A program made the translations under genes and the position numbers. 41,399 bases of DNA, from positions 1 through 41,399 of the forward strand of contig CAYZEH010000002.1 of assembly GCA_964477135.1 (NCBI GenBank), in the 5' to 3' direction. The notes under the pieces were generated by a model. The model was not told the DNA's origin, searched no databases, and saw only the letters and a program-made list of their open reading frames with translations. The stretch comes from an uncultured Pirellulales bacterium (GTDB taxonomy: Bacteria; Planctomycetota; Phycisphaerae; Sedimentisphaerales; Anaerobacaceae). Shown here in pieces: positions 162 to 41,399 of this stretch. Numbering within the stretch: position 1 is the stretch's first letter; the number at the start of each line of letters is the position of its first letter.

Positions 162-1585
162 TGACCAGCGAGCAAATCTCAAAACCACTTGCTAAGCTGG
201 ATGAAACTTCACTTAGCTACATGCTGAAGCTGGCGGCGCCGATGATAGTTACCAATATATCTTTTACGATAATGCAGTTTGTTGACAGGTTAATGGTTTC
301 GAGGCTTGGGACAAATGAGTTGGCGGCGATATTGCCTGCGGGGGTGGTTAGTTTTCTGCCGGGCAGTTTTGCAATCGGGGTGCTGACAAGCGTTAGTACA
401 TTTACCAGTCAATCGTTCGGCAGAGGGGAAAATCGAGAGTGCCCGAAATACTGCTGGCAGGGGATTTATATGGGGCTTGCTTATTTTGCTATTGTGATCG
501 CAATTATGTGGCCTTGGTCGGGGTGGATATTTAAAGCTATGGGCCATGAAGGTGCTATCATTGAAATGGAAGTGGCGTATCTTCGTATTATGCTTTACAG
601 CCAGATGATCGCGGTTTTGATACATGCAAGCAGTCAATTTTTTATGGGTGTGCACCGCCCTGTTATCACGATGTATGCCGCTATAATCGGACAATTAGTC
701 AACGTAGGGTGTAATTATGTTTTGATATTCGGCAAGTTCGGATTTCCGCAGATGGGTATCAGGGGAGCTGCGTGGGGGACGTTTATTGGTATCGTTGTCG
801 GGGCTGGTATTCGGATGTGGGTGTTTATGGGCAGCGGTATTAATGAAAAATTTCACAGCAGAAGCAGTTTAAGACCTGATCCGGGGAAGATGAAAGATCT
901 GCTTAAGGTCGGTCTGCCTGCAGGATTCGGACTGATGGTAAACGTATCGCTTTGGGCGATGATTTTGCTTGGATTGGTGGGCAGGTTTGGCAAAGAGGCG
1001 GTGGCGGCTACATCGGCGGTATTTTCATATATCAATATCTCCGTTATGCCGATAGTAGGGATCGGGACCGCTTTGACGGCGGCGGTTGGGAAATCTATCG
1101 GTGCGGGAAGAAATGATATTGCTAAGAAACAGACGAGTATCTGCCTCAGGATAGGATTGACTTATATGGGATTTGTCGGGCTTTGCTTTTTTGTGTTCAG
1201 AGATAACCTGATGGCAATGTGGTCGACGGACAGCAAAGTTATTGATACGGGTGTTAAGATACTGATATGTGCGGCAATTTTCCAGGTTTTTGATGCTGCG
1301 ACGATAATATATAACGGCAGCTTACGCGGGGCAGGCGATACGGTCTGGATAGCAGCGATGTCTGCGATCGGGGCGATTGTTATACTTGGCGGCGGCGGCT
1401 GGGTAATTTTGAATTATTTCGAGGAACTCGGCATTATTGGGCCTTGGATCGCTGCGACAGTTAACATTATTGCTGTCGGGATCGCTAACAGATGGCGGTT
1501 TAAGAGTGGTAGGTGGATGGAAATTGATCTGTTCAGGCAAAGGCCAGCTGGGGTTGCTGTTGAAATTGAGACTGCGATAGAGTAA
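161..1585 (+). CDS. MATE family multidrug/sodium efflux transporter
   Basis: 474 aa polytopic membrane protein. The N-terminus (LKLAAPMIVTNISFTIMQFVDRLMVSRLG) and the twelve-helix bipartite layout are typical of NorM/DinF-type MATE proteins. Confidence 0.85.
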   Translation: MTSEQISKPLAKLDETSLSYMLKLAAPMIVTNISFTIMQFVDRLMVSRLGTNELAAILPAGVVSFLPGSFAIGVLTSVSTFTSQSFGRGENRECPKYCWQGIYMGLAYFAIVIAIMWPWSGWIFKAMGHEGAIIEMEVAYLRIMLYSQMIAVLIHASSQFFMGVHRPVITMYAAIIGQLVNVGCNYVLIFGKFGFPQMGIRGAAWGTFIGIVVGAGIRMWVFMGSGINEKFHSRSSLRPDPGKMKDLLKVGLPAGFGLMVNVSLWAMILLGLVGRFGKEAVAATSAVFSYINISVMPIVGIGTALTAAVGKSIGAGRNDIAKKQTSICLRIGLTYMGFVGLCFFVFRDNLMAMWSTDSKVIDTGVKILICAAIFQVFDAATIIYNGSLRGAGDTVWIAAMSAIGAIVILGGGGWVILNYFEELGIIGPWIAATVNIIAVGIANRWRFKSGRWMEIDLFRQRPAGVAVEIETAIE

Positions 1586-1586
1586 G

Positions 1587-1690
1587 ATATACCCTTAAGG
1601 GTAGTAAATGTCCGCGAATAAATCCATAACTTGTTATTTTTAAGTTCGTTACCCGCGGATAAGCGGTAAAATTCAATTGGGATCAGTGTA
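1587..1690 (+). repeat. Mosaic intergenic repeat, copy A (modules H1 - 2a - 3)
   Basis: ATATACCCTTAAGGGTAGTAAATGTCCGCGAATAAATCCATAACTTGTTATTTTTAAGTTCGTTACCCGCGGATAAGCGGTAAAATTCAATTGGGATCAGTGTA. It aligns along its length with copies D and E and partly with B, C, F and G. It starts 5 nt after the MATE stop and ends 40 nt before the next start. Confidence 0.9.
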
Positions 1691-1729
1691 TGTGTATGAT
1701 GAATGTTATTTGAGCTGGGTGAAACTTAG

Positions 1730-3334
1730 ATGAAAAAACTATCGGTATATTTGTTGGTAATCTGTGCGGTATGCATAGGGCTTGCTGATTCTTCATTGGT
1801 GGCTGGGCCTTTAGCTAACAATAACAAACCCGGAACTTACGCCAGAAGCATTGAGCAGATACTTAAATATAACAGCAAGGATATCGATCTTGGTACTGCG
1901 GCAATGATAATTTCTGAGCAGTGGAATGACGATGTTCTGGGCAGGCAGTACATTTTCGAGCTGGATAAGATGGCTCACAAGATACTTAAGGAACTTAAAG
2001 AACGCGGCAGGAGTATTAATTATAAAGCTATCGATGTTATTAATGACTATCTTTATAGTGAGTTGGGGTTTACTGCGATTGAGACTGCTGATAACCCGGA
2101 AGATCTGTTTTTGCACAGCGTTCTTGATAATAAAAGAGGATATTGCCTGAGTCTGTCTGTGCTTTATCTTTCGCTGGCGGAGAGAATCGGACTTGAATTG
2201 TATGGGGTAGTTGTGCCGGGGCATTTTTTTGTCAGGTATGATGACGGGGATGTCCGGTTCAATATTGAAACGACTAACGGGGGCTCGATCACGAATGATG
2301 AACATTACATAGAGAAGTTTAATGTTCCGCAGAATAGTGATGTTTACATGAAGAGCCTTGATAAGAGACAGACTTTGGGGTGTTTCTTTAATAATCTCGG
2401 TAATAGTTACAGCGAAATCGGCAACATAGAAATGGCAAAGAAAGCTTTGGAAAAATCTATTGAGATCAATCCGTCGCTGGCGGAATCGAGAACGAACCTT
2501 GGGAATATTTATCTTTCTAAAGGCGAAACAGATTTTGCGATAGACTTGTATCAGAGTGCACTTGAAGTCAATCCGAATGACGCCAAAGTTTATAATAACC
2601 TTGCTAATGCGTATATGCAGAAAGGCTGGACAGTCAGGGCAATTAAGTTTTATAAGCTAAGCCAGAGTCTTGACAGTGATTTTGCAGATATATATAGAAA
2701 TCTCGCCAGGGCTTATATCGCAAATAAAAATTACGATGAAGCTTTGTCGCAATTGAATAAAGCTGAGATACGTTCGCCTAAAGACCCTGTTATCTATTAT
2801 TTCCTGGGAGAGGTTTATGTCCAGAAAGACAGGATAGCGGATGCGATCTATAATTATGAGAAAGCTCTTAAGTTTAAGGCTGATTACGCGGAAGCTTATT
2901 GCGGGATCGCATTTTGTCATAACATAAGCGGCGAAGTGGATGATGAAATATACTTCTATAAAAAAGCTATCTCGGTAAAGCCTGAAATGACAGCGGCGAT
3001 ACTAAATCTTGGCAATGCGTATTTTTCAAAGAAAAAATTCGAGGCAGCTATCGAGCAATATAAAAAAGCAATAATGCTTGTGAGCGATGACGACAGAATA
3101 TATTACAATCTCGGCGCAGCGTATTCGAATTTGAAACTTTACCCTGAGGCCCTTGAGCAATATGTTAAGACTCTGGAAATTAATCCGCAAAATGCGGATG
3201 CGCACAACGGGCTTGGGTTCATTTATTACAATCAGGGTAAATACAGAACAGCATGGAAACACATCAATAAAGCCAAACAGCTTGGCTATAATGTCGATTT
3301 GCCGCTTTATGAGGCTATAAAAAGTCGGCTCTGA
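1730..3334 (+). CDS. Exported transglutaminase-like domain / TPR repeat protein (SirB1-like architecture)
   Basis: N-terminal signal-like peptide MKKLSVYLLVICAVCIGLA. Transglutaminase-like core RGYCLSLSVLYLSLAERIGL...VVPGHFFVRY. About 9 C-terminal TPR units (repeated A..Y..A/L..P.. pattern). Confidence 0.75.
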   Translation: MKKLSVYLLVICAVCIGLADSSLVAGPLANNNKPGTYARSIEQILKYNSKDIDLGTAAMIISEQWNDDVLGRQYIFELDKMAHKILKELKERGRSINYKAIDVINDYLYSELGFTAIETADNPEDLFLHSVLDNKRGYCLSLSVLYLSLAERIGLELYGVVVPGHFFVRYDDGDVRFNIETTNGGSITNDEHYIEKFNVPQNSDVYMKSLDKRQTLGCFFNNLGNSYSEIGNIEMAKKALEKSIEINPSLAESRTNLGNIYLSKGETDFAIDLYQSALEVNPNDAKVYNNLANAYMQKGWTVRAIKFYKLSQSLDSDFADIYRNLARAYIANKNYDEALSQLNKAEIRSPKDPVIYYFLGEVYVQKDRIADAIYNYEKALKFKADYAEAYCGIAFCHNISGEVDDEIYFYKKAISVKPEMTAAILNLGNAYFSKKKFEAAIEQYKKAIMLVSDDDRIYYNLGAAYSNLKLYPEALEQYVKTLEINPQNADAHNGLGFIYYNQGKYRTAWKHINKAKQLGYNVDLPLYEAIKSRL

Positions 3335-3410
3335 TAATATTAAAACCTGGCTTTTGGCACGTTTACAAAAAGATTGATAGAGTTGCTATAAGAGTGTATA
3401 TTACAGTCTG

Positions 3411-3514
3411 AATACCTTTTGAGGCTAAGAAGTTTCCGCGAGGAAAATTATAATCCTGATATGTGTTGGGATACCCGCGAATAAACGGGAAAACTTAACT
3501 GTGAGTAGTACATA
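3411..3514 (+). repeat. Mosaic intergenic repeat, copy B (modules H1' - 2b - X - 3b)
   Basis: AATACCTTTTGAGGCTAAGAAGTTTCCGCGAGGAAAATTATAATCCTGATATGTGTTGGGATACCCGCGAATAAACGGGAAAACTTAACTGTGAGTAGTACATA. Near full-length match to copy F. Ends 23 nt before the GTG start at 3537. Confidence 0.9.
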
Positions 3515-3536
3515 AAAAATTAACGGAGATTTAAAC

Positions 3537-5948
3537 GTGAATTCAAAGAGGATATTACTTTCATCAGCTACGATCGTTTTGTTTTTTGCGGTATGGGCAT
3601 ACGGCAGCGATGTTAATAACCTGACTGACTATTACGGGTTTGGGGCAATAGAGATAATTAAGTCTGATTGGGGAATCGGCAATCTTACGGTGACAGACTT
3701 TAACGGCGACGGTCTGAAAGATATTGCTTTTGCGAATAACCACAAGACAAAAATAGAGATACTGCTGCAAAAGGCGAAAGGCCCTGATATTAAACTGCAA
3801 ACTAAGCCTTTAGTCGACGAAGATGATATTAATCGGTTACCAGAAAACAGTCCGTTTGAGAAAAATTCTGTGGCAGTTTCACAGAAGATATCAAGTATGG
3901 TCAGCGGTGATTTTAATAACGATGGAATGGTTGATATTGTTTTTTACGGCAAACCTAACGGCCTTTATTTGATATTGCAGAAGAAAGATGAATCGCAAAA
4001 GAAAAGCAATACTTTGAGTTGGAGAAGCCGAAAGAAAATTAAGATAAGCGATGGGCTGATGAGCAGCAATGCGTTAGTGAAATCTGATTTCAACAATGAC
4101 GGCAGAGACGATATCGCTTTGGCGAGCCAGAAAAGTATTTATATTATTTTACAGAAGGACGATGGGACATTGGCTGAGGAGGTGGAATATCCTACCTCTG
4201 CTGTGACTTTAGGAGTTGACAGTTCTGATCTGAACGGCGATGGACTTAATGATCTTGTGATGATAACAGATGACAGGGATAAGCCTTTACATGTACGGTT
4301 TGGTTTGGCTGATGGTCAGCTTGGCCCGGAGATGCGGTTTTTTATCGAGTCGCCTTATGTGATGGATATGTGGGATATCGACGGGGAAACGGGCAGTGAG
4401 ATACTTACTGTCGACAGGAGAAGCGGCAGGCTGATAAGTTATAGTCTTTCAACTGAGATGAGGGCTGATGAAGATTGGCCTATGTTGTTTTATCCTTTTG
4501 CTTCGAGTAAAGATAACAGGAAAAGAGATATTGCGGTAGCTGATTTTGACGGCGACGGGCTCGATGATATTGTTGTTAGTGACCCGGCGGCAGCAGAGTT
4601 GATCTTTTACAGGCAAAAAGCTGACATTGGTCTGGCAGATACGGTGCGATTCCCCTGCTTTTCTGATGTTGATCGTATCGATGAAAGTGACATTGACGGC
4701 GACGGTAAAAGTGAGCTGATAGTGCTTAGTGTTAAGGAAAAGCTTATAGGTTTGGTTAGTTATGAGAATAATCGACTGACATTTCCTAAGCCCTTGACAG
4801 TTGCTGGTGAACCGGTTGCTATGGAGATAGCTGACATTGATGGTGATGGGGAGATGGATTGTGTTTATATCAGTAAGGATGCCAACAGTCTGCGGTCTCT
4901 GGAGGTGGTTTATAATCTGGCAGCGATTGATAAATTGAAGAGCAAAACTCTTGATGATGAGCTGCTTCAATTGGTAAAGGACATCAACTCCTGCGAAACT
5001 GGGCTGGAATTAAAAAAGCTTGAGGCAAATCCGGACGGCATAAAGGTAATCGATGTTGACCAGGATGGATTGAACGATATTGTTGTCTTTGTTAAATATG
5101 AGAAGCCGATACTTATCCGCCAGATTGAGCAGAAAAAATTTGAGATCGCAGATGCCGGCAAGACACAGGCAAGTTTGATCCAGCAGGCGACAATGAGCTC
5201 GATGACAGTTGGTAATATCGACAGCAATAAAGGCAAAGAGATACTTATAGCACAGGATAATTTTGCGAGAAGCCTGAAGTTTTCCAAGCAATCAAAATGG
5301 CAAATCATTGACCAGTATAATGCTAAGAGTAAGGAAAACAAGATCGGCACTGTCGCGGCATTTAATATGAGCAGTGACAATGCTAAACCAAGTATATTAT
5401 TACTTGACGGGCAAAAGGGGCAATTGCAGATATTAAACGCGGGCCAGGACCAGACTTACCGTATCACCAGGGAACTTGAAGTCGGAAGCTGGAGCAATTC
5501 TCTGCATCTTAAGATACTTTTTGCAGCGGTTACAGGTAAAGACGTTAACAGTATTATTTTGTTTGACAGTAATAAATTTGCACTGATAAATATGCCTGAA
5601 GATGATTCAGGTCTGAGGTGTGAACAGCTCTTCAGCTATGAGACAAAAATAAAGGACGGCATCTACGGCAATATGACAAGCGGTGATATTAACAATGACG
5701 GCAAGGTCGATATTGTTATGGTCGATTATAAAGAGAACCACATTGAAATATTGACGTTTGAGGAAAAGAATAAGCCTGTATCAGCGATGAGTTTTAAGAT
5801 ATTCGAAGAAAAGAGCTATCGTAAACAGCAACAGGACAAAGTCGGTGTTGAGCCAAGAGAGATGAAAATTGCGGATGTTACCGGTGATGGTAAGAACGAC
5901 CTTGTCAGTATTATTCATGACCGGATAATTATTTATCCGCAGGACTAA
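3537..5948 (+). CDS. Secreted FG-GAP/VCBS repeat protein (beta-propeller, Ca-binding DxDxDG loops)
   Basis: 803 aa with GTG start and signal peptide. At least 10 repeats of D(F/I/V/L)(N/D)xDGxxD(I/L): DFNGDGLKDI, DFNNDGMVDI, DFNNDGRDDI, DLNGDGLNDL, DFDGDGLDDI, DIDGDGKSEL, DIDGDGEMDC, DVDQDGLNDI, DINNDGKVDI, DVTGDGKNDL. Confidence 0.8.
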   Translation: MNSKRILLSSATIVLFFAVWAYGSDVNNLTDYYGFGAIEIIKSDWGIGNLTVTDFNGDGLKDIAFANNHKTKIEILLQKAKGPDIKLQTKPLVDEDDINRLPENSPFEKNSVAVSQKISSMVSGDFNNDGMVDIVFYGKPNGLYLILQKKDESQKKSNTLSWRSRKKIKISDGLMSSNALVKSDFNNDGRDDIALASQKSIYIILQKDDGTLAEEVEYPTSAVTLGVDSSDLNGDGLNDLVMITDDRDKPLHVRFGLADGQLGPEMRFFIESPYVMDMWDIDGETGSEILTVDRRSGRLISYSLSTEMRADEDWPMLFYPFASSKDNRKRDIAVADFDGDGLDDIVVSDPAAAELIFYRQKADIGLADTVRFPCFSDVDRIDESDIDGDGKSELIVLSVKEKLIGLVSYENNRLTFPKPLTVAGEPVAMEIADIDGDGEMDCVYISKDANSLRSLEVVYNLAAIDKLKSKTLDDELLQLVKDINSCETGLELKKLEANPDGIKVIDVDQDGLNDIVVFVKYEKPILIRQIEQKKFEIADAGKTQASLIQQATMSSMTVGNIDSNKGKEILIAQDNFARSLKFSKQSKWQIIDQYNAKSKENKIGTVAAFNMSSDNAKPSILLLDGQKGQLQILNAGQDQTYRITRELEVGSWSNSLHLKILFAAVTGKDVNSIILFDSNKFALINMPEDDSGLRCEQLFSYETKIKDGIYGNMTSGDINNDGKVDIVMVDYKENHIEILTFEEKNKPVSAMSFKIFEEKSYRKQQQDKVGVEPREMKIADVTGDGKNDLVSIIHDRIIIYPQD

Positions 5949-5950
5949 TC

Positions 5951-6031
5951 TTTATACCCTTTGAGGCTAAGATCCCGATGTATATCGGGATACCCGCGGA
6001 TAAACGGTAAAATTCAACCGGGATCAGTATA
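5951..6031 (+). repeat. Mosaic intergenic repeat, copy C (short form: H1' - X - 3)
   Basis: TTTATACCCTTTGAGGCTAAGATCCCGATGTATATCGGGATACCCGCGGATAAACGGTAAAATTCAACCGGGATCAGTATA. It lacks module 2. It starts 3 nt after the FG-GAP stop (its H1 hairpin begins 7 nt after) and ends 15 nt before the mnmA ATG. Confidence 0.9.
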
Positions 6032-6045
6032 AAATAGCAGGTGAA

Positions 6046-7104
6046 ATGGAACAGGGTAAGGAAACAGTTTTTATCGCTTTGAGCGGCGGTGTAGATTCTA
6101 TGGCGACGGCGGCATTGCTGCTCGAGAGGGACTACCATTGCGAAGGTGTGTTTATGATCACCTGCGACCATTTTATAGCACAGAGAAGTGATGCGGAAAA
6201 AGCCGCCAAGGCTCTTGGAATAAAGTTACATGTGATCGACTTTCGGAAAGAGTTCGGGTTTATACTGGATTATTTTTTCGGTGAGTACAAGGCAGGCAGG
6301 ACGCCAAATCCGTGCGTTTACTGCAATCGGTTAATAAAATTCGGGAAGCTTTGGGAGTTTGCCAGAGAACATGGCGCAAAGTTTCTTTCAACGGGACATT
6401 ATGCGCGTATTATTAAAACTGATGCAGGGGCTGGTTTATATGAGACTACGAACAAAGCGAAAGATCAGTCCTATGTCTTTTCAATGGTGCGCAGAGAGAT
6501 GCTTGAACATTTGATTTTGCCTATGGGCGATTATACTAAAGATCAGGCAAGGCAGATCGTTGCCGATTTTAATATCGGGATCGAACATAAAGGGGAATCA
6601 CAGGAAATATGCTTTGTGCCTGACGATGATTATGTCAGATTGATAGAGCAAAAGTGTCCTGAGCTTATCCGCGAAGGTGACATCGTTGACAGTAGCGGTA
6701 AAGTTTTGGGCAAACATCAGGGAGTGCACAAGTTCACTATAGGCCAACGACGAGGTTTGGGCGTTGCGATGGGTGTGCCTTATTATGTTACTTGTATTGA
6801 TGCTGAGAAAAACAGGGTAACACTTGGGCCTAAAGCTGAGGTAATGCATAATAAGCTTTCAGCATCGGGGGTGAACTGGCTTATAGATGAGCCGAGGGAT
6901 GTATTTACGGCAAAAGTAAAAATAAGATATAACTCCGGAGGTGTATCCGCGAAAGTTTATCCCAAAGGCAATCAAGTCGATATCGAATTTGACGAGGCAG
7001 TGTCGGCGATCACAGCTGGGCAGACAGCGGTAATTTATATTGAAGATGAACACGGCTGGAAAGTCACCGGCGGGGCATGGATCGATTCAGCTGGAGATGT
7101 CTAA
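6046..7104 (+). CDS. mnmA: tRNA-specific 2-thiouridylase MnmA
   Basis: PP-loop motif ALSGGVDS. Conserved GRTPNPCVYCN and KDQSYVF motifs. 352 aa, a typical length. Confidence 0.9.
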   Translation: MEQGKETVFIALSGGVDSMATAALLLERDYHCEGVFMITCDHFIAQRSDAEKAAKALGIKLHVIDFRKEFGFILDYFFGEYKAGRTPNPCVYCNRLIKFGKLWEFAREHGAKFLSTGHYARIIKTDAGAGLYETTNKAKDQSYVFSMVRREMLEHLILPMGDYTKDQARQIVADFNIGIEHKGESQEICFVPDDDYVRLIEQKCPELIREGDIVDSSGKVLGKHQGVHKFTIGQRRGLGVAMGVPYYVTCIDAEKNRVTLGPKAEVMHNKLSASGVNWLIDEPRDVFTAKVKIRYNSGGVSAKVYPKGNQVDIEFDEAVSAITAGQTAVIYIEDEHGWKVTGGAWIDSAGDV

Positions 7105-7240
7105 AAAACAATTATTTTTTTTTCATCAACGAATTGCTTCGCTAAACAGCATCGGCTTTGCTGAATCCTGTTGTCACTGAAATTGCTCCCTTATCTTTTT
7201 AGAAACAGAATCGGTGTTTAGACGCTCCTGTTCGGTTTTT

Positions 7241-7345
7241 TTATACCCTTCAGGGTAGTAAATGCCCGCGAATAAATCCGTACCTTGTTATTTTTGAATT
7301 ATTTATCCGCGGATAAACGGTGAAATTCGATTGCGATCATTATAT
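7241..7345 (+). repeat. Mosaic intergenic repeat, copy D (H1 - 2a - 3)
   Basis: TTATACCCTTCAGGGTAGTAAATGCCCGCGAATAAATCCGTACCTTGTTATTTTTGAATTATTTATCCGCGGATAAACGGTGAAATTCGATTGCGATCATTATA. Collinear with copy A. Confidence 0.9.
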
Positions 7346-7359
7346 TATAAAGTGATTAT

Positions 7360-7387
7360 TTGACGGCATTTATGTTTGTGATATAAT
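7360..7387 (+). promoter_or_regulatory. Sigma70-type promoter for lpxD-lpxI
   Basis: TTGACG (7360-7365), 16 nt spacer, TATAAT (7382-7387), with a TG at the extended -10 position (7379-7380). It lies about 45 nt upstream of the lpxD ATG. Confidence 0.55.
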
Positions 7388-7431
7388 GGCCTGCTGTAAA
7401 TATTGAATAAGAACTATTGAGGATGCTTAAA

Positions 7432-8466
7432 ATGCAGCAGGTTAAAACTTTAAAAGAGCTGGCAGAATTTGTCGGCGGAAAAGTATCAGGCGATGGCAGC
7501 ATCAGGATAAGTTCAGTAACTACTTTGGAAAATGCAAGCGAAGGGGATATAACCTTCCTTGCTAACAAAAAGTATGAAAATCAGCTTTTGACAACTAAAG
7601 CATCGGCTATCATTGTGGGCAAGAAGGTTAAATCCGGTGCAAGTCTGATTATCTGTGATGATCCTTATTTTGCTTTCAGGGAAATTGTAGTTTTAATGTA
7701 TGGCCAACGAAAACATAAAAAAACAGGAATCAGCAAGAAAGCCTTTATTGCAGAGACTGCGGTAACAGGCAAAGGCTGTGACATACATAATTTTGTTACT
7801 ATTTGCGACGGAGCCAAAATAGGTGAAGGCTGTATGCTTTATCCGGGTGTATTCGTAGGGGAAAATACAATTATCGGCGACGAGTGTATTTTGTATCCTA
7901 ATGTTGTTGTTTTTGACGAGTGCGTTATTGGCAACAGGGTTATTATTCAGGCTAATGCAATTATAGGCGAAGATGGGTATGGGTTTGCTACTCACGAGGG
8001 AGAGCATCATAAAATACCTCAAATCGGCAGAGCTGTTATTGAGGACGATGTTGAGATCGGCGCTGGTTGTGGAATCGAACGCGGAACACTTGATGACACG
8101 GTGATCGGCAAAGGGACAAAGATCGGCGACATGGTTGCAATTGGACACGGCGCAAAGATCGGGGTCGGATGTTTGATTGTGCCTTTTGTGGGGATCGCAG
8201 GTTCGACAACAGTCGGTGATTACTGCATTTTCGGCGGACAGTCTGGTACTGTCGGCCATATTAAGATCGGCAACAGGGTAAGGGTCGGCGCACAGTCGGG
8301 AGTTATTAATGACGTCGCTGACGGAAAGGAAATTTTAGGTTCGCCTGCAATAGATTCTGATATAGCCAGACGTGCCTATGCTCTTATTGGTGCGTTACCT
8401 GAAATGTATAAAAAAATTAAAAAGCTGGAAAAGAAATTAAAAAAAGCTACAGATAAAACATGTTAG
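7432..8466 (+). CDS. lpxD: UDP-3-O-(3-hydroxyacyl)glucosamine N-acyltransferase LpxD
   Basis: N-terminal LKELAEFVGGKV...ITFLANKKY and a long left-handed beta-helix hexapeptide region. The ATG at 7432 is preferred over TTG 7417 and ATG 7423 because GAGGA at 7419-7423 sits 8 nt upstream. Confidence 0.88.
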   Translation: MQQVKTLKELAEFVGGKVSGDGSIRISSVTTLENASEGDITFLANKKYENQLLTTKASAIIVGKKVKSGASLIICDDPYFAFREIVVLMYGQRKHKKTGISKKAFIAETAVTGKGCDIHNFVTICDGAKIGEGCMLYPGVFVGENTIIGDECILYPNVVVFDECVIGNRVIIQANAIIGEDGYGFATHEGEHHKIPQIGRAVIEDDVEIGAGCGIERGTLDDTVIGKGTKIGDMVAIGHGAKIGVGCLIVPFVGIAGSTTVGDYCIFGGQSGTVGHIKIGNRVRVGAQSGVINDVADGKEILGSPAIDSDIARRAYALIGALPEMYKKIKKLEKKLKKATDKTC

Positions 8467-8484
8467 AAGAATCAGATTGTAAAT

Positions 8485-9324
8485 ATGAATGCTAATTTGA
8501 AAACACTTGGACTTATTGCAGGGCAAGGGAGACTTCCTTTTATGGTTGCAGCGGGCGCTAAAAAAGCTGGGCTGAGGGTTGTTTGTGTCGGGCTTGCGGG
8601 AAGTGTTGATGAGACATTGGCTGACGAAGTTGACGTTTTTAAAAAAGTAGCTTTGGCCAGACCTGGGTCGTGGATAAGAAAACTCAGAAAACAAGGCGTT
8701 ACGGATACGATAATGGTCGGTCGAGTAGCCAAGGGAAAAATATTTACACCTTTCAGGATAATACGATATCTGCCGGACTGGAGATCGATACGGATATGGT
8801 ATTGGCGATTGCGAAAAAAGAATAAACAGAACGAAACGGTGTTGAATGCTCTGGCGGAGGAACTTGCCAGCGGAGGTATTATATTGGAAGATTCTACGAA
8901 ATATTGTAAAGGTAAAATGGCAGAGGTCGGTATTATGACCAGCAAAGAGCCTGACAGCTCAATTCAGGAAGATATCGAATTTGGTTGGGAAATCGTAAAA
9001 AAACTTGCTGAACTTGATATTGGTCAGGCGATTGCGGTTAAGGAGAAAGAGGTGCTCTCCGTTGAAGGGATCGAGGGGACTGCCAATATGATTAAACGCA
9101 CGGGACAATTCTGCAAAAAAGGCGGCTGGACCCTTATGAAAGTCTCTAAGGCAAATCAGGATATGCGGTTCGATGTGCCTTGCGTCGGGGTGGATACGAT
9201 AAAAGAGCTTGCTGAAAATGGCGGCAGGCACATTGTTATTGAAGCTGAAAAAACTTTTATGATCGATAAAGAAGAAACTATAAAGCTTGCTGACAAGCTG
9301 GGTATTACTATCACTGGTCGCTGA
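8485..9324 (+). CDS. lpxI: UDP-2,3-diacylglucosamine diphosphatase LpxI (DUF1009 family)
   Basis: LGLIAGQGRLPFMVAAGAKKAG N-terminus and C-terminal MRFDVPCVGVDTI motif are typical of LpxI. Located immediately after lpxD. Confidence 0.8.
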   Translation: MNANLKTLGLIAGQGRLPFMVAAGAKKAGLRVVCVGLAGSVDETLADEVDVFKKVALARPGSWIRKLRKQGVTDTIMVGRVAKGKIFTPFRIIRYLPDWRSIRIWYWRLRKKNKQNETVLNALAEELASGGIILEDSTKYCKGKMAEVGIMTSKEPDSSIQEDIEFGWEIVKKLAELDIGQAIAVKEKEVLSVEGIEGTANMIKRTGQFCKKGGWTLMKVSKANQDMRFDVPCVGVDTIKELAENGGRHIVIEAEKTFMIDKEETIKLADKLGITITGR

Positions 9325-9326
9325 GA

Positions 9327-9443
9327 AATATACCTTAAGGGTAGTATCCCGATATATCGGGGCCGCGAATAAAGTTGTAATTTGTTATTTTCAAGTTATT
9401 TACCCGCGGATAAACGGGTAAATTCAATTAGGATCAGTATATA
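9327..9443 (+). repeat. Mosaic intergenic repeat, copy E (longest form: H1 - X - 2a - 3)
   Basis: AATATACCTTAAGGGTAGTATCCCGATATATCGGGGCCGCGAATAAAGTTGTAATTTGTTATTTTCAAGTTATTTACCCGCGGATAAACGGGTAAATTCAATTAGGATCAGTATA. It starts 3 nt after the lpxI stop (its H1 hairpin begins 7 nt after) and ends 5 nt before the ATG at 9448. Confidence 0.9.
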
Positions 9444-9447
9444 TTTT

Positions 9448-10860
9448 ATGAATGATTTCCCTGTTCAATTAGAAATTAATAGATTGTCAGATACCAAGAC
9501 GATCGAAAATGTAAGCTGTTATGAATTGCTGCGTGAGATCGCGGGCAAGCGAGAAGTTTATGACGGCATCTGGGATGATAAAGCGGTCATTGTAAAAATA
9601 TTCCTTGACCCGGTCAGCGCTAACAGACATTTCAAAAAAGAATGGCACGGCCTGAAAGAACTCCAAAAGTTGGGACTAAACAGCGCTAAACCATTGTTTT
9701 ACGGCAGGGGTAAAGACAATAGCTGGGTGATTGTATCAGAGAATATCGTCGGGTCAGAAACCGTTCTTTCGGCAATGCAGCAATGTCAAACCAAAGACGC
9801 TACAGTCGAGCTTGTGCTGAAAGTAACCAGTGAGCTTGCCAGACAGCATGTTAAAGGTGTGATTCAGAAAGATCTGCATCTGGGCAATTTCCTGATTAAA
9901 GACGGCAAGATATATGCCCTCGACCCGGGACAGATGAGCTTTTCTTCAAAGGCGCTATCAAGAAGAAAAAGTCTTTATAACCTGGGGGCTTTGGCGATGT
10001 CACTGCCGAATTATGATAAGCAAAATTTAAGAGCTTTGTGTGAGAAATACTTTGCTGAGAGAGAATGGAAGTTCAACAGTAAAGATGAAAAAGCTTTTGA
10101 AAAATATCTGTTAAAAAACGAAAAACGGTGTTTAAGACATTCTCAAAAGAAATGTATGCGAACGAGTAAGCGGACTTTGAAATTAGTAACAAGTGATTAC
10201 AATTGTGTTTTCGAGAGGCCTTTCTGTGATAATATTAATCCGCATGAATTCATCGAGCAAATCGATGACCTTATGGACAAAGGTGATATTCTCAAGAAAG
10301 GCAACACCTGTTATGTTTCACGATTCAATTACAACAATGAGGATATAGTCGTAAAAAGGTATAACTATAAGGGGCCTATAAACCTGATCAGGCGAAATTT
10401 TAAAACTTCTCGTGCGAGACGCAATTGGCTTTATGCGAATTTGCTCATATCTGTAAAAATAGGAACGCCTCGGCCTTTCGGTTTTATCGAAAAAAAGAAG
10501 GGGCATTTTATCTGGCAGTCCTATTATATCAGTGAATATACAGACGCTATGAACCTTTATGCATTTTTGGCGAACCCGAATTTAACACCGGCGGGGCGTG
10601 AGAAGATGGCGGACAGAATCACTGACCTGATGACCCAGTTAGGAAAACGTGGGCTTTCTCATGGGGACATGAAACGATCAAATATATTAGTAACCGATGA
10701 GAAGCTTATTTTGATAGACCTGGATTCGATGAAAATTCACGGCGTCGGCCTTACGTGCCAAATGGAACTTGCTAAAGACATCAAACGACTGGCTAAGGAC
10801 AAACCCGGCGGTTATAAAGGAATAGATGTCGACTATAAAAAGGTGATGAGTAAAATTTAG
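9448..10860 (+). CDS. Protein with two tandem lipopolysaccharide-kinase (Kdo/WaaP/RIO-like) domains
   Basis: Domain 1 has AVIVKIF and QKDLHLGNFLIKDGKIYALD. Domain 2 has DIVVKRYNY and SHGDMKRSNILVTDEKLILIDLD. The start is set at ATG 9448 because the tracked 9382 start lies inside repeat copy E. Confidence 0.7.
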   Translation: MNDFPVQLEINRLSDTKTIENVSCYELLREIAGKREVYDGIWDDKAVIVKIFLDPVSANRHFKKEWHGLKELQKLGLNSAKPLFYGRGKDNSWVIVSENIVGSETVLSAMQQCQTKDATVELVLKVTSELARQHVKGVIQKDLHLGNFLIKDGKIYALDPGQMSFSSKALSRRKSLYNLGALAMSLPNYDKQNLRALCEKYFAEREWKFNSKDEKAFEKYLLKNEKRCLRHSQKKCMRTSKRTLKLVTSDYNCVFERPFCDNINPHEFIEQIDDLMDKGDILKKGNTCYVSRFNYNNEDIVVKRYNYKGPINLIRRNFKTSRARRNWLYANLLISVKIGTPRPFGFIEKKKGHFIWQSYYISEYTDAMNLYAFLANPNLTPAGREKMADRITDLMTQLGKRGLSHGDMKRSNILVTDEKLILIDLDSMKIHGVGLTCQMELAKDIKRLAKDKPGGYKGIDVDYKKVMSKI

Positions 10861-19613: not shown

Positions 19614-20252
19614 TTATCGCATAATCCAGTTTTGCTCTTTGAATTTTAAAATCGCGTCTGATCGAAATAACGGATCGCCTCCAAGTTTGTAATCAAGCTC
19701 AAGGGTTTTCCTGAGAAAAACTTTCTTTGCATTACCATTTTCATCCTTAGCGGTCGGATGATCTAATTCAATTGTCTCATTGCTGAGCCCGGCAACAAAG
19801 AAGCTTACATTTTTAGCCTTCGGGGCAAAATCAGACCAGATAATCGCAACATCCTTTATATTGTCCTGCCCCTGAAGCACTTTATTGCTTGTCTTATCAA
19901 TAGACTCAAGGAACGGATATTGTTTCTGATGCCGACGTTTGATCTGGTTAAACACAGAAGGCGGCACATTTATGCCGGCTGGAACAATCTGAAATGTGTC
20001 TGTCATAAGCTCACATTTAGGATAAAAATCAACATCATCACCGGTTTCATTCGTCAATGTCATGATCATATACCAGAATCTTACCGGATGCCTTTGCCCT
20101 TCAAAACGAATCATTATTTGCTGTGGATGCTTATACTTGACATCTACTGTCCATTGCTGAGCTGACTGCACAATTGCCGGCGAAGGTGCTGCCTGACAAA
20201 AACTTCCACTGATAACCAATATTGCTGAAAAAAGATAAATGTATTTCTTCAT
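19614..20252 (-). CDS. Secreted hypothetical protein
   Basis: 212 aa with a clear signal peptide (MKKYIYLFSAILVISGSFCQA). No recognisable domain. Confidence 0.6.
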   Translation of the reverse strand: MKKYIYLFSAILVISGSFCQAAPSPAIVQSAQQWTVDVKYKHPQQIMIRFEGQRHPVRFWYMIMTLTNETGDDVDFYPKCELMTDTFQIVPAGINVPPSVFNQIKRRHQKQYPFLESIDKTSNKVLQGQDNIKDVAIIWSDFAPKAKNVSFFVAGLSNETIELDHPTAKDENGNAKKVFLRKTLELDYKLGGDPLFRSDAILKFKEQNWIMR

Positions 20253-20438: not shown

Positions 20439-20542
20439 TTATACCCTTCAGGGTAAGAAATTTCCGCGAGAAAAGTTATAATCCTGATGTATATTGTGAT
20501 ACCCGCGGATAAGCGGGAAAACTCAACTGTGAGTAGTATATA
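20439..20542 (+). repeat. Mosaic intergenic repeat, copy F (H1 - 2b - X - 3b)
   Basis: TTATACCCTTCAGGGTAAGAAATTTCCGCGAGAAAAGTTATAATCCTGATGTATATTGTGATACCCGCGGATAAGCGGGAAAACTCAACTGTGAGTAGTATATA. Collinear with copy B. Located in a divergent intergenic region 124 nt upstream of mgtE. Confidence 0.9.
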
Positions 20543-20665
20543 TTCGATATTACAGCAAGATAGACGATTATTGCCGAAAAAACCTTTGCTTAATGATAAA
20601 AATTCAGTTAGCTTAACCTGCCATAGTACTGGTCTTAAATAGCAACATTAGCAGAGGTTACTCTT

Positions 20666-22066
20666 ATGTCAGACGAAAAAAAACAGCTATTGCAGCAACT
20701 CGAACCCTTAATTGAACAAGGAAACAGAGACCTCATAGCAGAGTTGCTCAAGGACCGCCGAAGCAGTGATATCGCTGAAATCGTGGAAACTTTCGACAGC
20801 GAAGAGTCTCGGCTTATTTTCGATTCCCTCGACAAAGAAACATCCGCCGAGATTCTTGAAAAAGTTGACGAAGCCACCAGGTCAGAACTTTTCGATGTAC
20901 TAAGTTTGCAAGAGATAACATCATTAGTCTCTGAAATGGACCCCGATGACGCAGCAGACGTTCTCATGGAACTGTCGGAAGAAGGGATCGCAGAAGTAGT
21001 CGATCAGCTGGAGCCGGAAGAATCTGCCAAGATAAAAAAACTAATGCAGTATTCTGAGGATTCCGCGGGCGGTATTATGGACCCCGTAGTTATCTCGGTT
21101 GATGAAAACGCAACTGTTGCTGAAGCAATAAATAAAATTCGCTCCGCTGAATTAGATGAAGACTTCTACAGCGTATACGTTGTGAATAAACACCGGTTAT
21201 TCCTCGGCGACGTACGTATAAGACTACTGTTGATAAACTCAGAAGATACAAAAATCAGCAAGCTTATCGACCCTGATACAATGTATGTCACAGCTGACGC
21301 CGATCAGGAAGAAGTGCGAAATATCTTCAGTAAAAACGATCTGATAGTTGTCCCCGTACTGGACAGACACCATAAACTTATAGGCCGAATTACCGCTGAC
21401 CGTATTATCGAAGTCGCAGAAGAAGAGGCAGCTGAGGACCTCTACGCAATGGCTGGTACCGATGCGAACGAGCTCGATACCATCTCAAGTATCAATGCAG
21501 CGAAGGTAAGAATGACCTGGCTGCTGCCATGTCTGATAGGCACGGGAATAACTGCTCTGGTAATTATGTTATTTCATAAGGTCTTCAGCTTAGACAGCAT
21601 GGGATTGGTATTCACCTCAGCTGTTCCTTTCGTACCGATGGTCGGTGCTTTAAGTGGAAATGCCGGACTCCAGACCTCTGCGATTGTTATCTCAGGCCTT
21701 GCAACAGGCCACCTCGCAGCTGAAAGATTGGGGCAGGTCTTTATGCGTGAAGTCAAAATTGCCTTAGTCGTTGCTATCTGCTGCGGAATAATTGGTGCCG
21801 TGGTGTGCAGCTTCCTGCCAAGCCTGATGGGCAATGAAAACGCAGCAACTATCGAATTCTCTAAGCATCTCAGGATAGTTATGGCATTTGGCATCTCGAT
21901 GTTTTCAGCTATAATGATAGCTACAACATTAGGGCTTTTCCTGCCGTTTTTGTTTAGAAAAATAGGTATAGACCCTGCTATCAGTTCTGGTCCATTGGTT
22001 ACTACTGCTAACGACTCAATCAGTGCAACTATCTTTATGCTTCTCACATTTTTGCTCACAAAATAA
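20666..22066 (+). CDS. mgtE: Magnesium transporter MgtE
   Basis: 466 aa with an N-terminal acidic MgtE_N domain, a tandem CBS pair and a five-helix C-terminal channel domain (GNAGLQTSAIV motif). Confidence 0.92.
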   Translation: MSDEKKQLLQQLEPLIEQGNRDLIAELLKDRRSSDIAEIVETFDSEESRLIFDSLDKETSAEILEKVDEATRSELFDVLSLQEITSLVSEMDPDDAADVLMELSEEGIAEVVDQLEPEESAKIKKLMQYSEDSAGGIMDPVVISVDENATVAEAINKIRSAELDEDFYSVYVVNKHRLFLGDVRIRLLLINSEDTKISKLIDPDTMYVTADADQEEVRNIFSKNDLIVVPVLDRHHKLIGRITADRIIEVAEEEAAEDLYAMAGTDANELDTISSINAAKVRMTWLLPCLIGTGITALVIMLFHKVFSLDSMGLVFTSAVPFVPMVGALSGNAGLQTSAIVISGLATGHLAAERLGQVFMREVKIALVVAICCGIIGAVVCSFLPSLMGNENAATIEFSKHLRIVMAFGISMFSAIMIATTLGLFLPFLFRKIGIDPAISSGPLVTTANDSISATIFMLLTFLLTK

Positions 22067-26465: not shown

Positions 26466-26493
26466 TTGTCTTTTGTTCTTTTTTGTGTAGAAT
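26466..26493 (+). promoter_or_regulatory. Candidate promoter for acs
   Basis: TTGTCT (26466-26471), 16 nt spacer, TAGAAT (26488-26493). It would give a leader of about 110 nt. Confidence 0.3.
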
Positions 26494-26611
26494 GAAGCGT
26501 CCTATTAGTTTTAGTGTGACAGCCTATGAGGTTTTATATAAAATACTAACCTGTAATATGTACAGGAACTCTAATAATGATAAAATGTATTTACACACAA
26601 AGGAAAGCTTT

Positions 26612-28594: not shown

Positions 28595-28612
28595 TAAAAA
28601 TATATTTGAACA

Positions 28613-28655
28613 TTATATGCCGGGCGTGTATAAGCCATATACGTCCGGCATATAA
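28613..28655 (+). promoter_or_regulatory. Long intercistronic hairpin / palindrome between acs and the MFS gene
   Basis: TTATATGCCGGGCGTGTATA - AGCC - ATATACGTCCGGCATATAA. There are 11 perfect outer bp plus about 6 inner bp with one G-T pair and one bulge. No T-tract follows. It ends 17 nt before the ATG at 28673. Confidence 0.5.
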
Positions 28656-28672
28656 ATTTGAAAGGAACTCTC

Positions 28673-41340: not shown

Positions 41341-41399
41341 ATAATGCCATTCATGGTAATAAATTTCCGCGAATAAATCCATAACTTCTTATCTTTGAG
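41341..41399 (+). repeat. Mosaic intergenic repeat, copy G (H1 variant - 2a; truncated by window end)
   Basis: ATAATGCCATTCATGGTAATAAATTTCCGCGAATAAATCCATAACTTCTTATCTTTGAG aligns with the first 58 nt of copy A. Module 2a differs from A at only about 3 of 36 positions. Confidence 0.85.

Follow-up and report, generated by a model that had tools for sequence, protein, structure and literature searches.

The seven intergenic repeats of the window, the 41,399-nt stretch of planctomycetal DNA analyzed here, are copies of one undescribed family of non-coding mobile elements of ~104 bp, which uncultured Sedimentisphaerales-like Planctomycetota carry at no fewer than about a hundred copies. A sequence-only reading of the window had described a real, modular and intergenic repeat family absent from Rfam, and this description held: the Rfam check gave no match, and the family extends beyond this locus. 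Together, the window and 78 genome loci contained 128 copies, 124 of them intergenic, and a search by a different seed pattern yielded 165 copies in 120 metagenome loci, again almost all intergenic. The main carrier was the MAG Phycisphaerae CSMAG_1890, ~94% identical to the window. The copies are non-coding and measure ~60-125 bp, with a modal size of 104 bp; inside one genome, nearest-neighbour identity had a median of 95% and a maximum of 99%. Copies from genomes with only ~65-71% identical genes were 82-95% identical to those of CSMAG_1890, and across metagenomes most element positions were conserved at ≥90%, including stretches outside the search seed.

Single-copy nhmmer queries and a sensitive search with a profile HMM built from 94 sequences, run with --max, recovered exactly seven copies in the window, all on the + strand, with E-values of 6e-10 to 2e-32, which is far beyond chance, and no eighth copy on either strand. 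Their positions agreed with those first read, as did the distances to the upstream stop and downstream start codons (A, 3/38 nt; B, 75/22; C, 5/14; E, 5/5). Copy A (1588..1692, +) lies between a MATE gene (stop 1585) and a TPR gene (start 1730); its core TAC...GTA (1590-1690) is preceded by TA (1588-1589) and followed by TG (1691-1692), where other copies have TA. The TPR gene is separated from an FG-GAP gene by copy B (3409..3515, +), in which a degenerate H1 is followed by 2b, X and 3b; both A and B have orthologous copies in locus L066. Copy C (5953..6031, +), with TA at 5953-5954, its core at 5955-6029 and TA at 6030-6031, is a 77-bp insertion with respect to the orthologous CSMAG_1890 site. 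Copy D (7242..7346, +) contains a perfect 16-bp palindrome, TTTATCCGCGGATAAA, and downstream of it lie a strong sigma70-like promoter (7360-7387) and lpxD. Copy E (9329..9444, +) separates lpxI (stop 9324) from a kinase-like gene (probable ATG 9449). Copy F (20440..20543, +), conserved in CSMAG_1890 (locus L005), lies where a minus-strand ORF (19614-20252) and mgtE (20666-22066) diverge, at the edge of a switch in GC3 skew. Copy G (41343..41399, +), cut by the window end, belongs to a subfamily with an ACCA/TGGT H1 and disagrees in orientation with the local GC3 skew.

The mosaic order proposed for these copies, H1, then 2a or 2b, an optional X, and module 3 with its tail, was correct, as were the individual architectures (A and D, H1-2a-3; E, H1-X-2a-3; C, H1-X-3; B and F, H1-2b-X-3b). 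The H1 hairpin, TACCC-TTAA-GGGTA in copy A (1590..1603, +), is indeed present but is degenerate in B and C (GGCTA arm), and copy G carries a compensated variant with CCA...TGG replacing CCC...GGG. Throughout the family the H1 stem is kept and the loop is variable; besides the ACCA/TGGT subfamily there is a GACCC/GGGTC variant, and the compensated changes comprise CG to AT (6 copies), TA to GC and CG to TA. These substitutions point to a structural hairpin and not to a duplex binding site. Module 3, in turn, had been called an invariant hairpin (CCCGC-GGATAA-GCGGG), a view that must be abandoned: it is complete only in F, copy A has four of the five pairs, and most copies read ACCCGCGGATAAACGG(T/G), leaving a stem of only 3-4 bp. 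What is conserved in this module is the sequence itself, the near-palindrome TTTACCCGCGGATAAA. Nor is CCGCG rare in the window, where 41 matches compare with 38 +/- 7 expected. Copy A also contains an internal direct repeat (1612..1663, +), formed by CCGCGAATAAA (1612-1622) and CCGCGGATAAG (1653-1663) at a spacing of 41 bp, with a weak central hairpin TAACTT...AAGTT between them; when single-stranded, its two CGCG sites could pair with each other to give a long imperfect hairpin. The conserved 3' tail of this copy, AAAATTCAATTGGGATCAGTGTA (1668..1690, +), corresponds to the family consensus AAAATTCAATTGGGATCAGTA, which is followed by TA. Single-strand folding was somewhat better than that of shuffled sequence (z = -1.9 to -2.3). 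The optional internal modules found across the family (X, 2a/2b, extra GC-rich hairpins and duplicated 3' modules) indicate that it diversifies through module loss, gain and duplication, and even the smallest copies, of 60-64 bp and with just one CCGCG unit, look intact.

Precise filled and empty sites (n=8), together with nested insertions, show that the element is mobile, and strongly support the non-autonomous mobile element that had been offered as one option. Copy C is precisely absent at the orthologous CSMAG_1890 site, which reads CTT-TA-AAAT; all eight pairs are clean, with one TA when empty and TA-TAC...GTA-TA when filled. Five nested insertions, each at the TA of AAGT-TA-GTTACCC inside a host copy, show that the element can also enter other copies. 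TA was found on both flanks in 67 of 104 copies and, with each flank counted separately, in ~80%, in a roughly palindromic W-TA-W context. In locus L036 the same operon is conserved, with a copy that lies in a different gap and points the other way. Taken together, these comparisons show that the element inserts into A/T-rich DNA between genes, at a TA dinucleotide, with TA-TAC...GTA-TA as the product.

With respect to orientation, the seven copies do share the + strand inside the window, but this does not extend to a general rule in which copies follow their flanking genes: in tandem-gene gaps the copy was co-oriented with the genes at 52:22 genome loci and 25:24 metagenome loci, and a divergent gap, like the one around copy F, is by construction uninformative about orientation. 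Copy direction follows the asymmetry of the DNA strands, that is, of replication, and not gene direction. Of 78 pairs of copies within a contig, 69 shared a strand, among them five of the six pairs in which the local gene strand differed. In a weighted regression of top-strand GC3 skew, the element strand had a coefficient of +0.131 (t = 11.6) and the gene strand one of +0.018 (t = 1.6). Per copy, orientation agreed with the local third-codon GC skew by 99:25, and by 52:2 at |skew| > 0.2; where gene direction and skew conflicted, the element sided with the skew (16:5). Agreement in the metagenome loci rose from 68:31 to 33:8 and 22:3 as the skew estimate improved. These counts show that the + strand of the element lies on the G-rich (leading-strand-sequence) strand, equivalent to the lagging-strand template, in ~80-95% of cases, GC3 skew being only a proxy for replication direction in a lineage without a mapped origin or terminus. 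The polarity is not absolute, as ~20% of copies are discordant, in the window G clearly and F at the borderline. Strand polarity and gene-strand bias account for the 52:22 and 25:24 ratios: with 67% of ORFs on the G-rich strand and a polarity of 80-90%, a co-orientation of ~60-64% is predicted, against 70% observed (52/74). Likewise, the run of five + copies in the window is due to its lying in one replication arm, where the genes also happen to point the same way, and is not a link to transcription.

We consider it probable, with no more than moderate confidence, that this is a non-autonomous element lacking terminal inverted repeats (TIR) that moves by replication-coupled transposition, via single-stranded DNA and an HUH-type enzyme. 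Transposition would be coupled to the replication fork, and its likeliest route would run through a single-stranded intermediate that an HUH/Y1-type transposase, acting in trans, cuts and joins, on the model of IS200/IS605-derived elements and REPs; the 5' TA would then be target and the 3' TA part of the element. Purifying selection against gene insertions would explain the intergenic-only placement, often tight against stop codons and ribosome-binding sites. As the ~1.27 Mb of DNA sampled near the copies yielded neither a Y1/HUH gene nor a transposase of any other kind, the enzyme is entirely inferred. Members of the IS200/IS605 family have no TIRs or target-site duplications, carry subterminal hairpins on one 'top' strand and enter the lagging-strand template (PMC5027513), and strong replication-oriented bias is known for IS200, IS200/IS605 and IS607, that of IS630 being little or mixed (PMC3971601). 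The present family resembles IS200/IS605 and the non-autonomous PATEs in lacking TIR, in its near-end hairpin and strand-specific behaviour, and in an orientation bias that puts one strand on the lagging-strand template (PMC5027513, PMC3971601). It differs in its conserved target, TA rather than a tetra- or pentanucleotide, in an H1 that abuts the 5' end (in IS608 the hairpin is ~20 nt inside) with no guide-plus-spacer arrangement, in a weak 3' hairpin (3-5 bp), and in having neither a tnpA/tnpB partner nor an omega-RNA-sized right end.

With REP/BIME/REPIN sequences and their RAYT (TnpA_REP) Y1 transposases the family shares a high-copy extragenic distribution, kept hairpin stems, modular clustering and the lack of TIR, as well as the proposed mobilisation as single-stranded DNA by an HUH enzyme that a single gene provides in trans (PMC3733652, PMC6006769, PMC3333891). 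This comparison includes the 'atypical hairpin' repeats of class 3 TnpA_Y1 in Planctomycetes and Acidobacteria; in the Planctomycetes, a class 3 Y1 transposase group is associated with such high-copy repeats (PMC6006769). Identity with REPs is nevertheless ruled out: the element has 104 bp and not 20-40 bp, is flanked by TA, and lacks a conserved unpaired GTAG/CGTC tag (only roughly half of the copies have GTAG after H1, where it overlaps the stem); neighbours mostly share a strand and do not form inverted doublets, and the DNA sampled around the copies showed no RAYT-like gene with copies on its flanks.

A DDE transposase of the IS630/Tc1 type, by truly duplicating 2 bp, would leave the same TA on both sides, and sequence alone fits both readings equally well. 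An ordinary TA-duplicating MITE, moved by an IS630/Tc1-mariner-type enzyme through double-strand cut-and-paste, with a strand bias only secondary to a sliding-clamp interaction or to selection, is a rival that we regard as unlikely. The single TA of the eight empty sites and the W-TA-W context would suit it, an orientation bias of IS630 occurs in a few chromosomes (PMC3971601), and MITE-like repeats of bacteria are in general described as AT-rich, intergenic and shorter than 200 bp, as is the present element (PMC2229807). In particular, RUP of S. pneumoniae, Correia/NEMIS of Neisseria and ERIC/IRU of enterobacteria are likewise non-coding, A+T-rich, high-copy and intergenic, of ~100-150 bp, with 5'-TA-3' termini and a TA target, often co-transcribed, divided into subfamilies and polymorphic for filled and empty sites (PMC2229807). 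Of the marks of an ordinary MITE that the earlier reading named, however, only the TA flanks are present. A DDE transposase requires similar binding sites at both ends, and end-to-end alignment was no better than shuffled beyond 5 nt, so that the inverted ends are limited to TATAC/GTATA, in place of the 15-30-bp terminal inverted repeats of RUP, Correia/NEMIS and ERIC/IRU; a classical MITE is thereby ruled out. Orientation is not random, its strong replication-strand polarity differs from those three families and is atypical of IS630 (PMC3971601), and neither a related parent IS nor an orphan pair of 5' and 3' ends bracketing an ORF was seen. The compensated H1 stem also speaks against recognition as duplex DNA. 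In head-to-tail dimers the junction is CAGTA|TACCC, which neither simple model predicts.

Movement by a serine-recombinase transposase of the IS607 type is doubtful. Here TA would be the 2-bp crossover, shared by both junctions and the empty site, and the two CCGCGRATAAA direct repeats, 41 bp or about four helical turns apart, the subterminal binding motifs. IS607 elements have no TIR or TSD, the same dinucleotide (GG) at termini and target, and helically phased subterminal direct repeats (PMC6188088), and their replication-oriented bias is strong (PMC3971601). Nonetheless, the dinucleotide is TA and not GG, there are only two repeats compared with four at one end of IS1535, and the intact-looking 60-64-bp copies have a single CCGCG unit; duplex recognition would leave the compensated hairpin unexplained, and no serine recombinase was seen near the copies, whose neighbours are only housekeeping or paralogous.

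Just as improbable, in our view, is that a host function drives the distribution, either as an mRNA stabiliser or processing site in operons or as a protein-binding site at the TTTACCCGCGGATAAA palindrome, with mobility serving only to spread it. Many copies lie inside operons and would be co-transcribed, ERIC offers a precedent for orientation-dependent mRNA effects (PMC2229807), and both the folding and the conservation between distant genomes would agree with it; the needs of a transposition machinery predict that conservation equally well. The emphasis first placed on an mRNA-level role was not sustained, given the gene orientation explained above by strand polarity and gene-strand bias, the absence of consensus promoters and terminators from the copies, which are themselves neither, and a divergence of orthologous copies close to that of other intergenic DNA (7.0% vs 8.3%). 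Moreover, near-identical genomes differ in whether a given site holds a copy, and within one operon the occupied gaps vary.

An integron-like array of cassettes, in which the repeats would serve as attC sites, is suggested by the first 9.5 kb, where genes unrelated to one another point the same way and each has an imperfectly palindromic repeat of ~100 bp behind it, but it is effectively refuted, since the genes are core ones (mnmA, lpxD, lpxI) whose order is kept in L036 and CSMAG_1890 with different gaps filled, copies genome-wide lie in both gene orientations and also in divergent and convergent gaps, and the precise TA-flanked indels involve the repeat alone, not gene plus repeat.

The optional internal modules between conserved 5' and 3' modules recall BOX of S. 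pneumoniae and the RIME/BIME mosaics, to which the sequence is unrelated and from which the precise TA-flanked insertion polymorphisms and the strand polarity set this family apart. Finally, among mispairs on the + strand, G-T exceeded A-C (69:16 and 67:18); two consensus positions contribute most of this excess, which may stem from mutational skew.

The repeat distributed along the window is a mobile element. Copy C (5953-6031, plus strand) is precisely absent at the orthologous site of CSMAG_1890, a Phycisphaerae metagenome-assembled genome (MAG) that shares about 94% identity with the window across about 15 kb (loci L066 and L005); the site is ...AATCTT-TA-AAATAG... when empty and, when filled, ...AATCTT-TA-TACCC...CAGTA-TA-AAATAG.... 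When the flanks of every copy were joined and matched against all the fetched DNA, eight clean filled/empty pairs were obtained in sequences 89-97% identical, and the empty site was a single TA in all eight; a ninth pair showed AG at the TA position. In addition, five composite copies consist of an element inserted in the TA of the AAGT-TA-GTTACCC motif of another copy. These precise filled/empty sites and nested copies bear out the non-autonomous mobile element that a first, sequence-only reading had offered as one option. In the more distant locus L036, the order FG-GAP-mnmA-lpxD-lpxI is kept at about 65% identity, but the FG-GAP/mnmA and mnmA/lpxD gaps, occupied in the window by copies C and D, are free of copies there; a copy of opposite orientation lies between lpxD and lpxI, which in the window are 18 nt apart. 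Comparing each copy with its nearest neighbour in the same genome gave a median identity of 95% and a maximum of 99%.

Seven copies, all on the plus strand, were recovered in the window with E-values of 6e-10 to 2e-32 by nhmmer, using single-copy queries and a 94-copy profile HMM with no filters: A (1588-1692), B (3409-3515), C, D (7242-7346), E (9329-9444), F (20440-20543) and G (41343-41399, cut by the window end). The same queries and unfiltered profile gave no eighth copy on either strand. The seven stretches, which the repeat finder grouped in families D1-D4 and D6, read at their positions as the sequence-only reading had described them; its modular layout, comprising a 5' hairpin (H1, TACCC-loop-GGGTA), module 2a or 2b, an optional palindrome X and then module 3 plus tail, was accurate, and so were its distances between copies and the neighbouring stop and start codons. 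Other details needed correction. Module 3, presented as an invariant CCCGC/GCGGG hairpin, is complete only in F; A has four of the five pairs, and most copies carry ACCCGCGGATAAACGG(T/G), leaving a stem of 3-4 bp. The conserved part of this module is the sequence itself, the near-palindrome TTTACCCGCGGATAAA, which is perfect in copy D. Likewise, CCGCG, held to be rare in the window, has 41 matches versus 38 +/- 7 expected. H1 is degenerate in copies B and C.

The family consensus is TATACCCTTAAGGGTAGTAAATGTCCGCGAATAAATCCGTAACTTGTTATTTTTAAGTTATTTACCCGCGGATAAACGGTAAAATTCAATTGGGATCAGTATA, its end opposite H1 reads ...AAATTCAATTGGGATCAGTATA, and the modal length is 104 bp. Besides minimal forms of 60-64 bp, made of H1, one CCGCG unit and the tail, the variants include solo 3' tails and copies in which G+C-rich hairpins have been added or the 3' module duplicated. 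The motif CCGCGRATAAA is present as two direct repeats 41 bp apart.

The ORFs of the window with a Pfam match are ordinary chromosomal genes throughout, among them those for MATE, TPR and FG-GAP proteins, mnmA, lpxD, lpxI, a Kdo/WaaP-like kinase, pheS, rplT, infC, thrS, PilB-like ATPases, mgtE and acs, and no transposase was found among them. The family extends beyond this locus. A genome scan with an exact pattern for the module 3 core, using one genome per species, returned at least 78 loci; among the 78 listed, 59 come from CSMAG_1890 (DAOWCP01), and the others from Sedimentisphaerales MAGs (JAUWPZ01, JAFGGH01), several MAGs labelled "Pirellulales" and one Planctomycetota MAG. Together with the window these loci contain at least 128 copies (nhmmer), of which 124 of 128 are intergenic according to crude ORF calls. 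A scan of metagenome contigs seeded on the 5' part of the element yielded at least 120 loci with at least 165 copies, across which nearly all positions of the 3' half, not part of the seed, are conserved at 90% or more. No family match was found in viral contigs or in plasmids. In agreement with the earlier failure to recognise a named family, Rfam gave no hit in the window at gathering score and none inside any copy at E <= 5 in the interval 1500-9600, and the searchable literature on repeats of Phycisphaerae, Sedimentisphaerales and Planctomycetes held no description of it.

The insertion site is marked by TA. This dinucleotide precedes the initial TAC in 81 of 104 copies, follows the terminal GTA in 83 of 104 and is present on both sides in 67. 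The target context is weakly A/T-rich and roughly palindromic, and 5' of the element TA alone is conserved, plus a weak T at position -3. TA on both flanks and single-TA empty sites would be consistent with a 2-bp target-site duplication; the same sequence pattern would result just as well from a crossover dinucleotide, or from one TA in the target and another carried by the element. Four head-to-tail dimers (L025 2664-2866; L060 1306-1507 and 2676-2860; L067 727-931) have the junction CAGTA-TACCC, with abutted cores and no TA between them, which is not expected from a second TA insertion; two of the four are near-identical neighbours, and these two probably arose by local duplication. At several loci (L001 1642-1747, L065 144-247 and L017 5629-5731) the upstream ORF runs 32-41 nt into the 5' end of a co-oriented element that supplies its stop codon, which fits an insertion at the TA of the original stop codon or beside it. 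Downstream of copy D, between this copy and lpxD, a near-consensus extended -10 promoter of the sigma70 type lies at 7360-7387 (TTGACG, 16 nt, TG-n-TATAAT; 11 of 12 positions), so that the native lpxD-lpxI promoter appears to be located 3' of the inserted element.

The orientation of the copies is strongly polar. In gaps between divergent or convergent genes the orientation with respect to the genes is fixed by construction, and copy F is therefore uninformative. In tandem-gene gaps we counted 52 co-oriented versus 22 anti-oriented copies in the genome loci, and 25 versus 24 in the metagenome loci. Copies of the same contig shared the absolute strand in 69 of 78 pairs from the genome loci, in five of the six same-contig pairs with differing local gene strand, and in 67 of 86 pairs within metagenome loci. 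Taking third-codon GC skew (GC3) as a proxy for replication direction, we regressed the top-strand GC3 skew of 500 ORFs on gene strand and local element strand; the coefficient was +0.131 (t = 11.6) for element strand and +0.018 (t = 1.6) for gene strand, and in the corresponding AT3 skew regression element strand gave -0.080 (t = -8.6). The plus sequence was on the G-rich strand in a ratio of 99:25 (p = 1e-11) for all copies of the genome loci with enough flanking ORFs, and of 52:2 where the local skew magnitude exceeded 0.2. For the metagenome loci, which share some orthologous copies with the genome set and are thus not fully independent of it, the ratios were 68:31, 33:8 and 22:3 with at least 400, 800 and 1200 G+C third positions, respectively. 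Co-orientation with the flanking genes, implied by the sequence-only reading, is accordingly not the primary rule: where gene direction and skew were in conflict, the element followed skew 16:5. Because the G-rich strand carries 67% of the ORFs, an element polarity of 80-90% predicts a gene co-orientation of about 60-64%, close to that observed.

In the window itself, regardless of which strand the genes are on, the top-strand GC3 skew is positive from 1 to 10.8 kb, stays flat until about 19.5 kb and then becomes strongly negative. Copies A to E lie in the positive-skew arm and F lies at the switch. Copy G is a true exception; the run of plus-strand copies thus represents one replication arm, in which the genes point with the fork too. 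The cumulative top-strand GC3 skew switches at about 10.8-19.6 kb, where the plus-strand genes on the left converge with the minus-strand genes on the right. This switch resembles a terminus of replication or the breakpoint of a rearrangement; no dif site of the E. coli type was found there. Over 161-40631, the raw GC skew strongly follows the coding strand, with values of +0.19 to +0.27 in the plus-strand gene block at 1-10 kb and of -0.19 to -0.33 in the mainly minus-strand block at 30-40 kb. As the GC3 skew does not track the coding strand, raw skew is a poor guide to replication direction here.

With regard to structure, the H1 stem is kept while its loop varies (TTAA, TTCA, TTTA, TTGA, TTGAA and others). 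A subfamily of six aligned copies, including relatives of copy G, shows a compensated change from CG to AT in this stem, and single copies show compensated changes from TA to GC and from CG to TA; a mismatch is seen in a subfamily with GGCTA as the arm sequence. In the central stem, (G/A)TAACTT...AAGTTA(T/C), which is often imperfect, the closing pair is G-T, A-T or G-C. The 3' hairpin, of no more than 3-5 bp, is in competition with long-range CGCG pairing: as CGCG is self-complementary, the two CCGCG units can pair, and a single strand would fold as H1 plus a long imperfect hairpin. The predicted single-strand folds had energies of -23.7 kcal/mol as RNA (z = -1.9) and -12.9 as DNA (z = -2.1). 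RNAalifold returned no consensus structure for the full alignment, which led us to test the helices individually; compensated changes were found only in H1 and partly in the central stem. Mispairs of the plus strand were G-T rather than A-C in ratios of 69:16 and 67:18; as these counts come mostly from two consensus positions, they argue only weakly for folding of the plus strand.

Set against known families by their descriptions, the element behaves as a small non-autonomous mobile repeat. MITEs sensu stricto have terminal inverted repeats (TIRs) of about 15-30 bp, a target-site duplication and a parent insertion sequence (IS) with the same ends. The element shares with them a size below 300 bp, the lack of coding capacity and the high copy number. 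A classical MITE was rejected because the ends share only TATAC/GTATA and, when the first 20-51 nt were aligned with the reverse-complemented last 20-51 nt, the score did not exceed that of shuffled sequence. Of the features by which the sequence-only reading would have recognised an ordinary MITE, the TA flanks were found, whereas TIRs beyond TATAC/GTATA, random orientation and a parent IS (in 1.27 Mb) were not. The TA-flanked bacterial MITEs RUP, Correia and ERIC (PMC2229807) resemble the element in size, composition, location and TA flanks, but they are defined by TIRs, which the element lacks. REP/REPIN sequences are palindromes of 20-40 bp with an unpaired GTAG or CGTC tag (PMC3733652). 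By these criteria a REP was also rejected, as the unit is 104 bp, carries no conserved unpaired GTAG/CGTC tag, and has neighbours mostly on the same strand instead of inverted doublets; roughly half of the copies have GGGTAG and the others GGGTAA, with GTA lying in the stem. On the other hand, the element shares with REP/PATE-type HUH substrates the absence of TIRs, a hairpin that is maintained, and polarity, and it shows the replication orientation bias of the IS200/IS605-derived PATEs, as judged by the GC3 proxy. Integron attC repeats move with the upstream gene and form arrays next to intI; an attC array was discarded since the indel comprises the repeat alone and the genes are syntenic core genes. 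A promoter or terminator cassette was likewise discarded, because no copy contains a terminator-like site and the sole promoter-like match is a weak one (9 of 12) in the tail of copy D.

The element is therefore TIR-less, with precise TA-associated insertion, a maintained 5' hairpin and strong strand polarity, and we infer that its transposition is coupled to replication. IS200/IS605 elements insert without duplication on the 3' side of a conserved tetra- or pentanucleotide and have subterminal hairpins at both ends. A strong replication-oriented bias has been reported for IS200, IS200/IS605 and IS607, a bias in the opposite sense for IS91 and ISL3, and little or mixed bias for IS630 (PMC3971601). 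IS200/IS605 elements lack TIRs and target-site duplications, their hairpins are recognised on one "top" strand, and they integrate into the lagging-strand template (PMC5027513), whose sequence is the G-rich leading-strand sequence and hence the same strand as the plus sequence here. Moreover, Planctomycetes harbour little-studied class 3 Y1 transposases associated with high-copy atypical hairpins (PMC6006769). Taken together, these analogies favour an HUH/single-stranded DNA mechanism with a trans-acting enzyme; the 5' TA would then represent the target, and the 3' TA would belong to the element. Against such a mechanism stand the two-base conserved target, the position of H1 abutting the element end, the weak 3' hairpin, and the result that no transposase of any kind was found in about 1.27 Mb around the copies.

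The latter search also revealed no autonomous parent IS with matching ends: orphan 5' or 3' ends proved to be minimal or truncated copies, and inverted copy pairs flank tatC and an HflX-like GTPase gene, not transposases. A RAYT-like transposase, for which the sequence-only reading had suggested a search, was not found near the copies; in the fraction of each genome sampled, tblastn with approximate IS608 TnpA and E. coli RAYT sequences as Y1 probes gave no hit in either locus set, and an HUH/Y motif scan of the metagenome-locus ORFs gave nothing. The only protein family recurrently adjoining copies is an expanded DUF1559/prepilin-like one with a prepilin-type N-terminal methylation motif (L006 6059-7985; L044 1467-2186; L068 5403-6071; L089 2955-3689; L144 43-2019), an adjacency that probably just reflects the expansion of this family in these genomes. 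The only other multi-copy sequence around the copies is a second repeat of about 600 bp, apparently non-coding and common to several CSMAG_1890 contigs at 84-91% identity (L009 3015-3574; L043 5819-6426; L026 1-300; L035 16-283), which has no convincing ORF, low-complexity ORFs only.

By analogy with IS607-type elements, which have an identical dinucleotide at the termini and in the target, no TIR, and subterminal direct repeats (PMC6188088), an IS607-like serine transposase may instead be responsible; TA would then be its crossover dinucleotide, and it would bind the CCGCGRATAAA repeats. The same dinucleotide at both junctions and in the empty site, together with the spacing of these two repeats, would agree with this, but the dinucleotide is TA and not the GG described in that source. 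An IS630-type DDE enzyme producing a true 2-bp TA duplication may also account for the flanks, although it is hard to square with the missing TIRs and the polarity. A primary host function at the RNA level is not favoured, since there is no promoter or terminator consensus, the orientation follows skew and not gene direction, and the orthologous copies A, B and F differ from those of CSMAG_1890 at 7.0% of positions versus 8.3% for other intergenic DNA (13.3% at four-fold degenerate sites), with no sign of special constraint on individual copies; single copies may nevertheless have acquired such a role.

Our data add to the Planctomycetota, in Sedimentisphaerales-like MAGs, a well-defined and recently active small mobile element; for this phylum the searchable literature yielded no account of repeats of this sort. 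It combines features usually split between classes, namely the TA flanks of IS630-type MITEs with the TIR absence, maintained hairpin and strong polarity of HUH/single-stranded DNA elements, which makes it a useful test case for the mobilisation of small non-autonomous elements. The family fills many operon spacers and adds about 13 codons to some ORFs; it will also break up or mislead the assembly of metagenomes and the calling of gene starts. In fragmented MAGs, the polarity of the copies offers a marker of replication direction. A bolder proposal, which we regard as possible but rather doubtful, is that it represents an undescribed class of high-copy, TIR-less, TA-inserting and replication-polar mobile DNA of the Planctomycetota, moved by an uncharacterised enzyme (e.g., a class 3 Y1/HUH transposase) or by a mechanism outside the assigned IS families; were this so, its orientation would mark replichores and could serve to locate origins and termini in uncultured genomes.

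Apart from this family, the repeat finder detected a 27-nt inverted repeat (I12) at 28605-28663 of the window, with arms 5 nt apart and 81% complementary. It fills the gap between an acetyl-CoA synthetase-like gene (26483-28594) and an MFS transporter gene (28658-29929), and could be an operator or a terminator.
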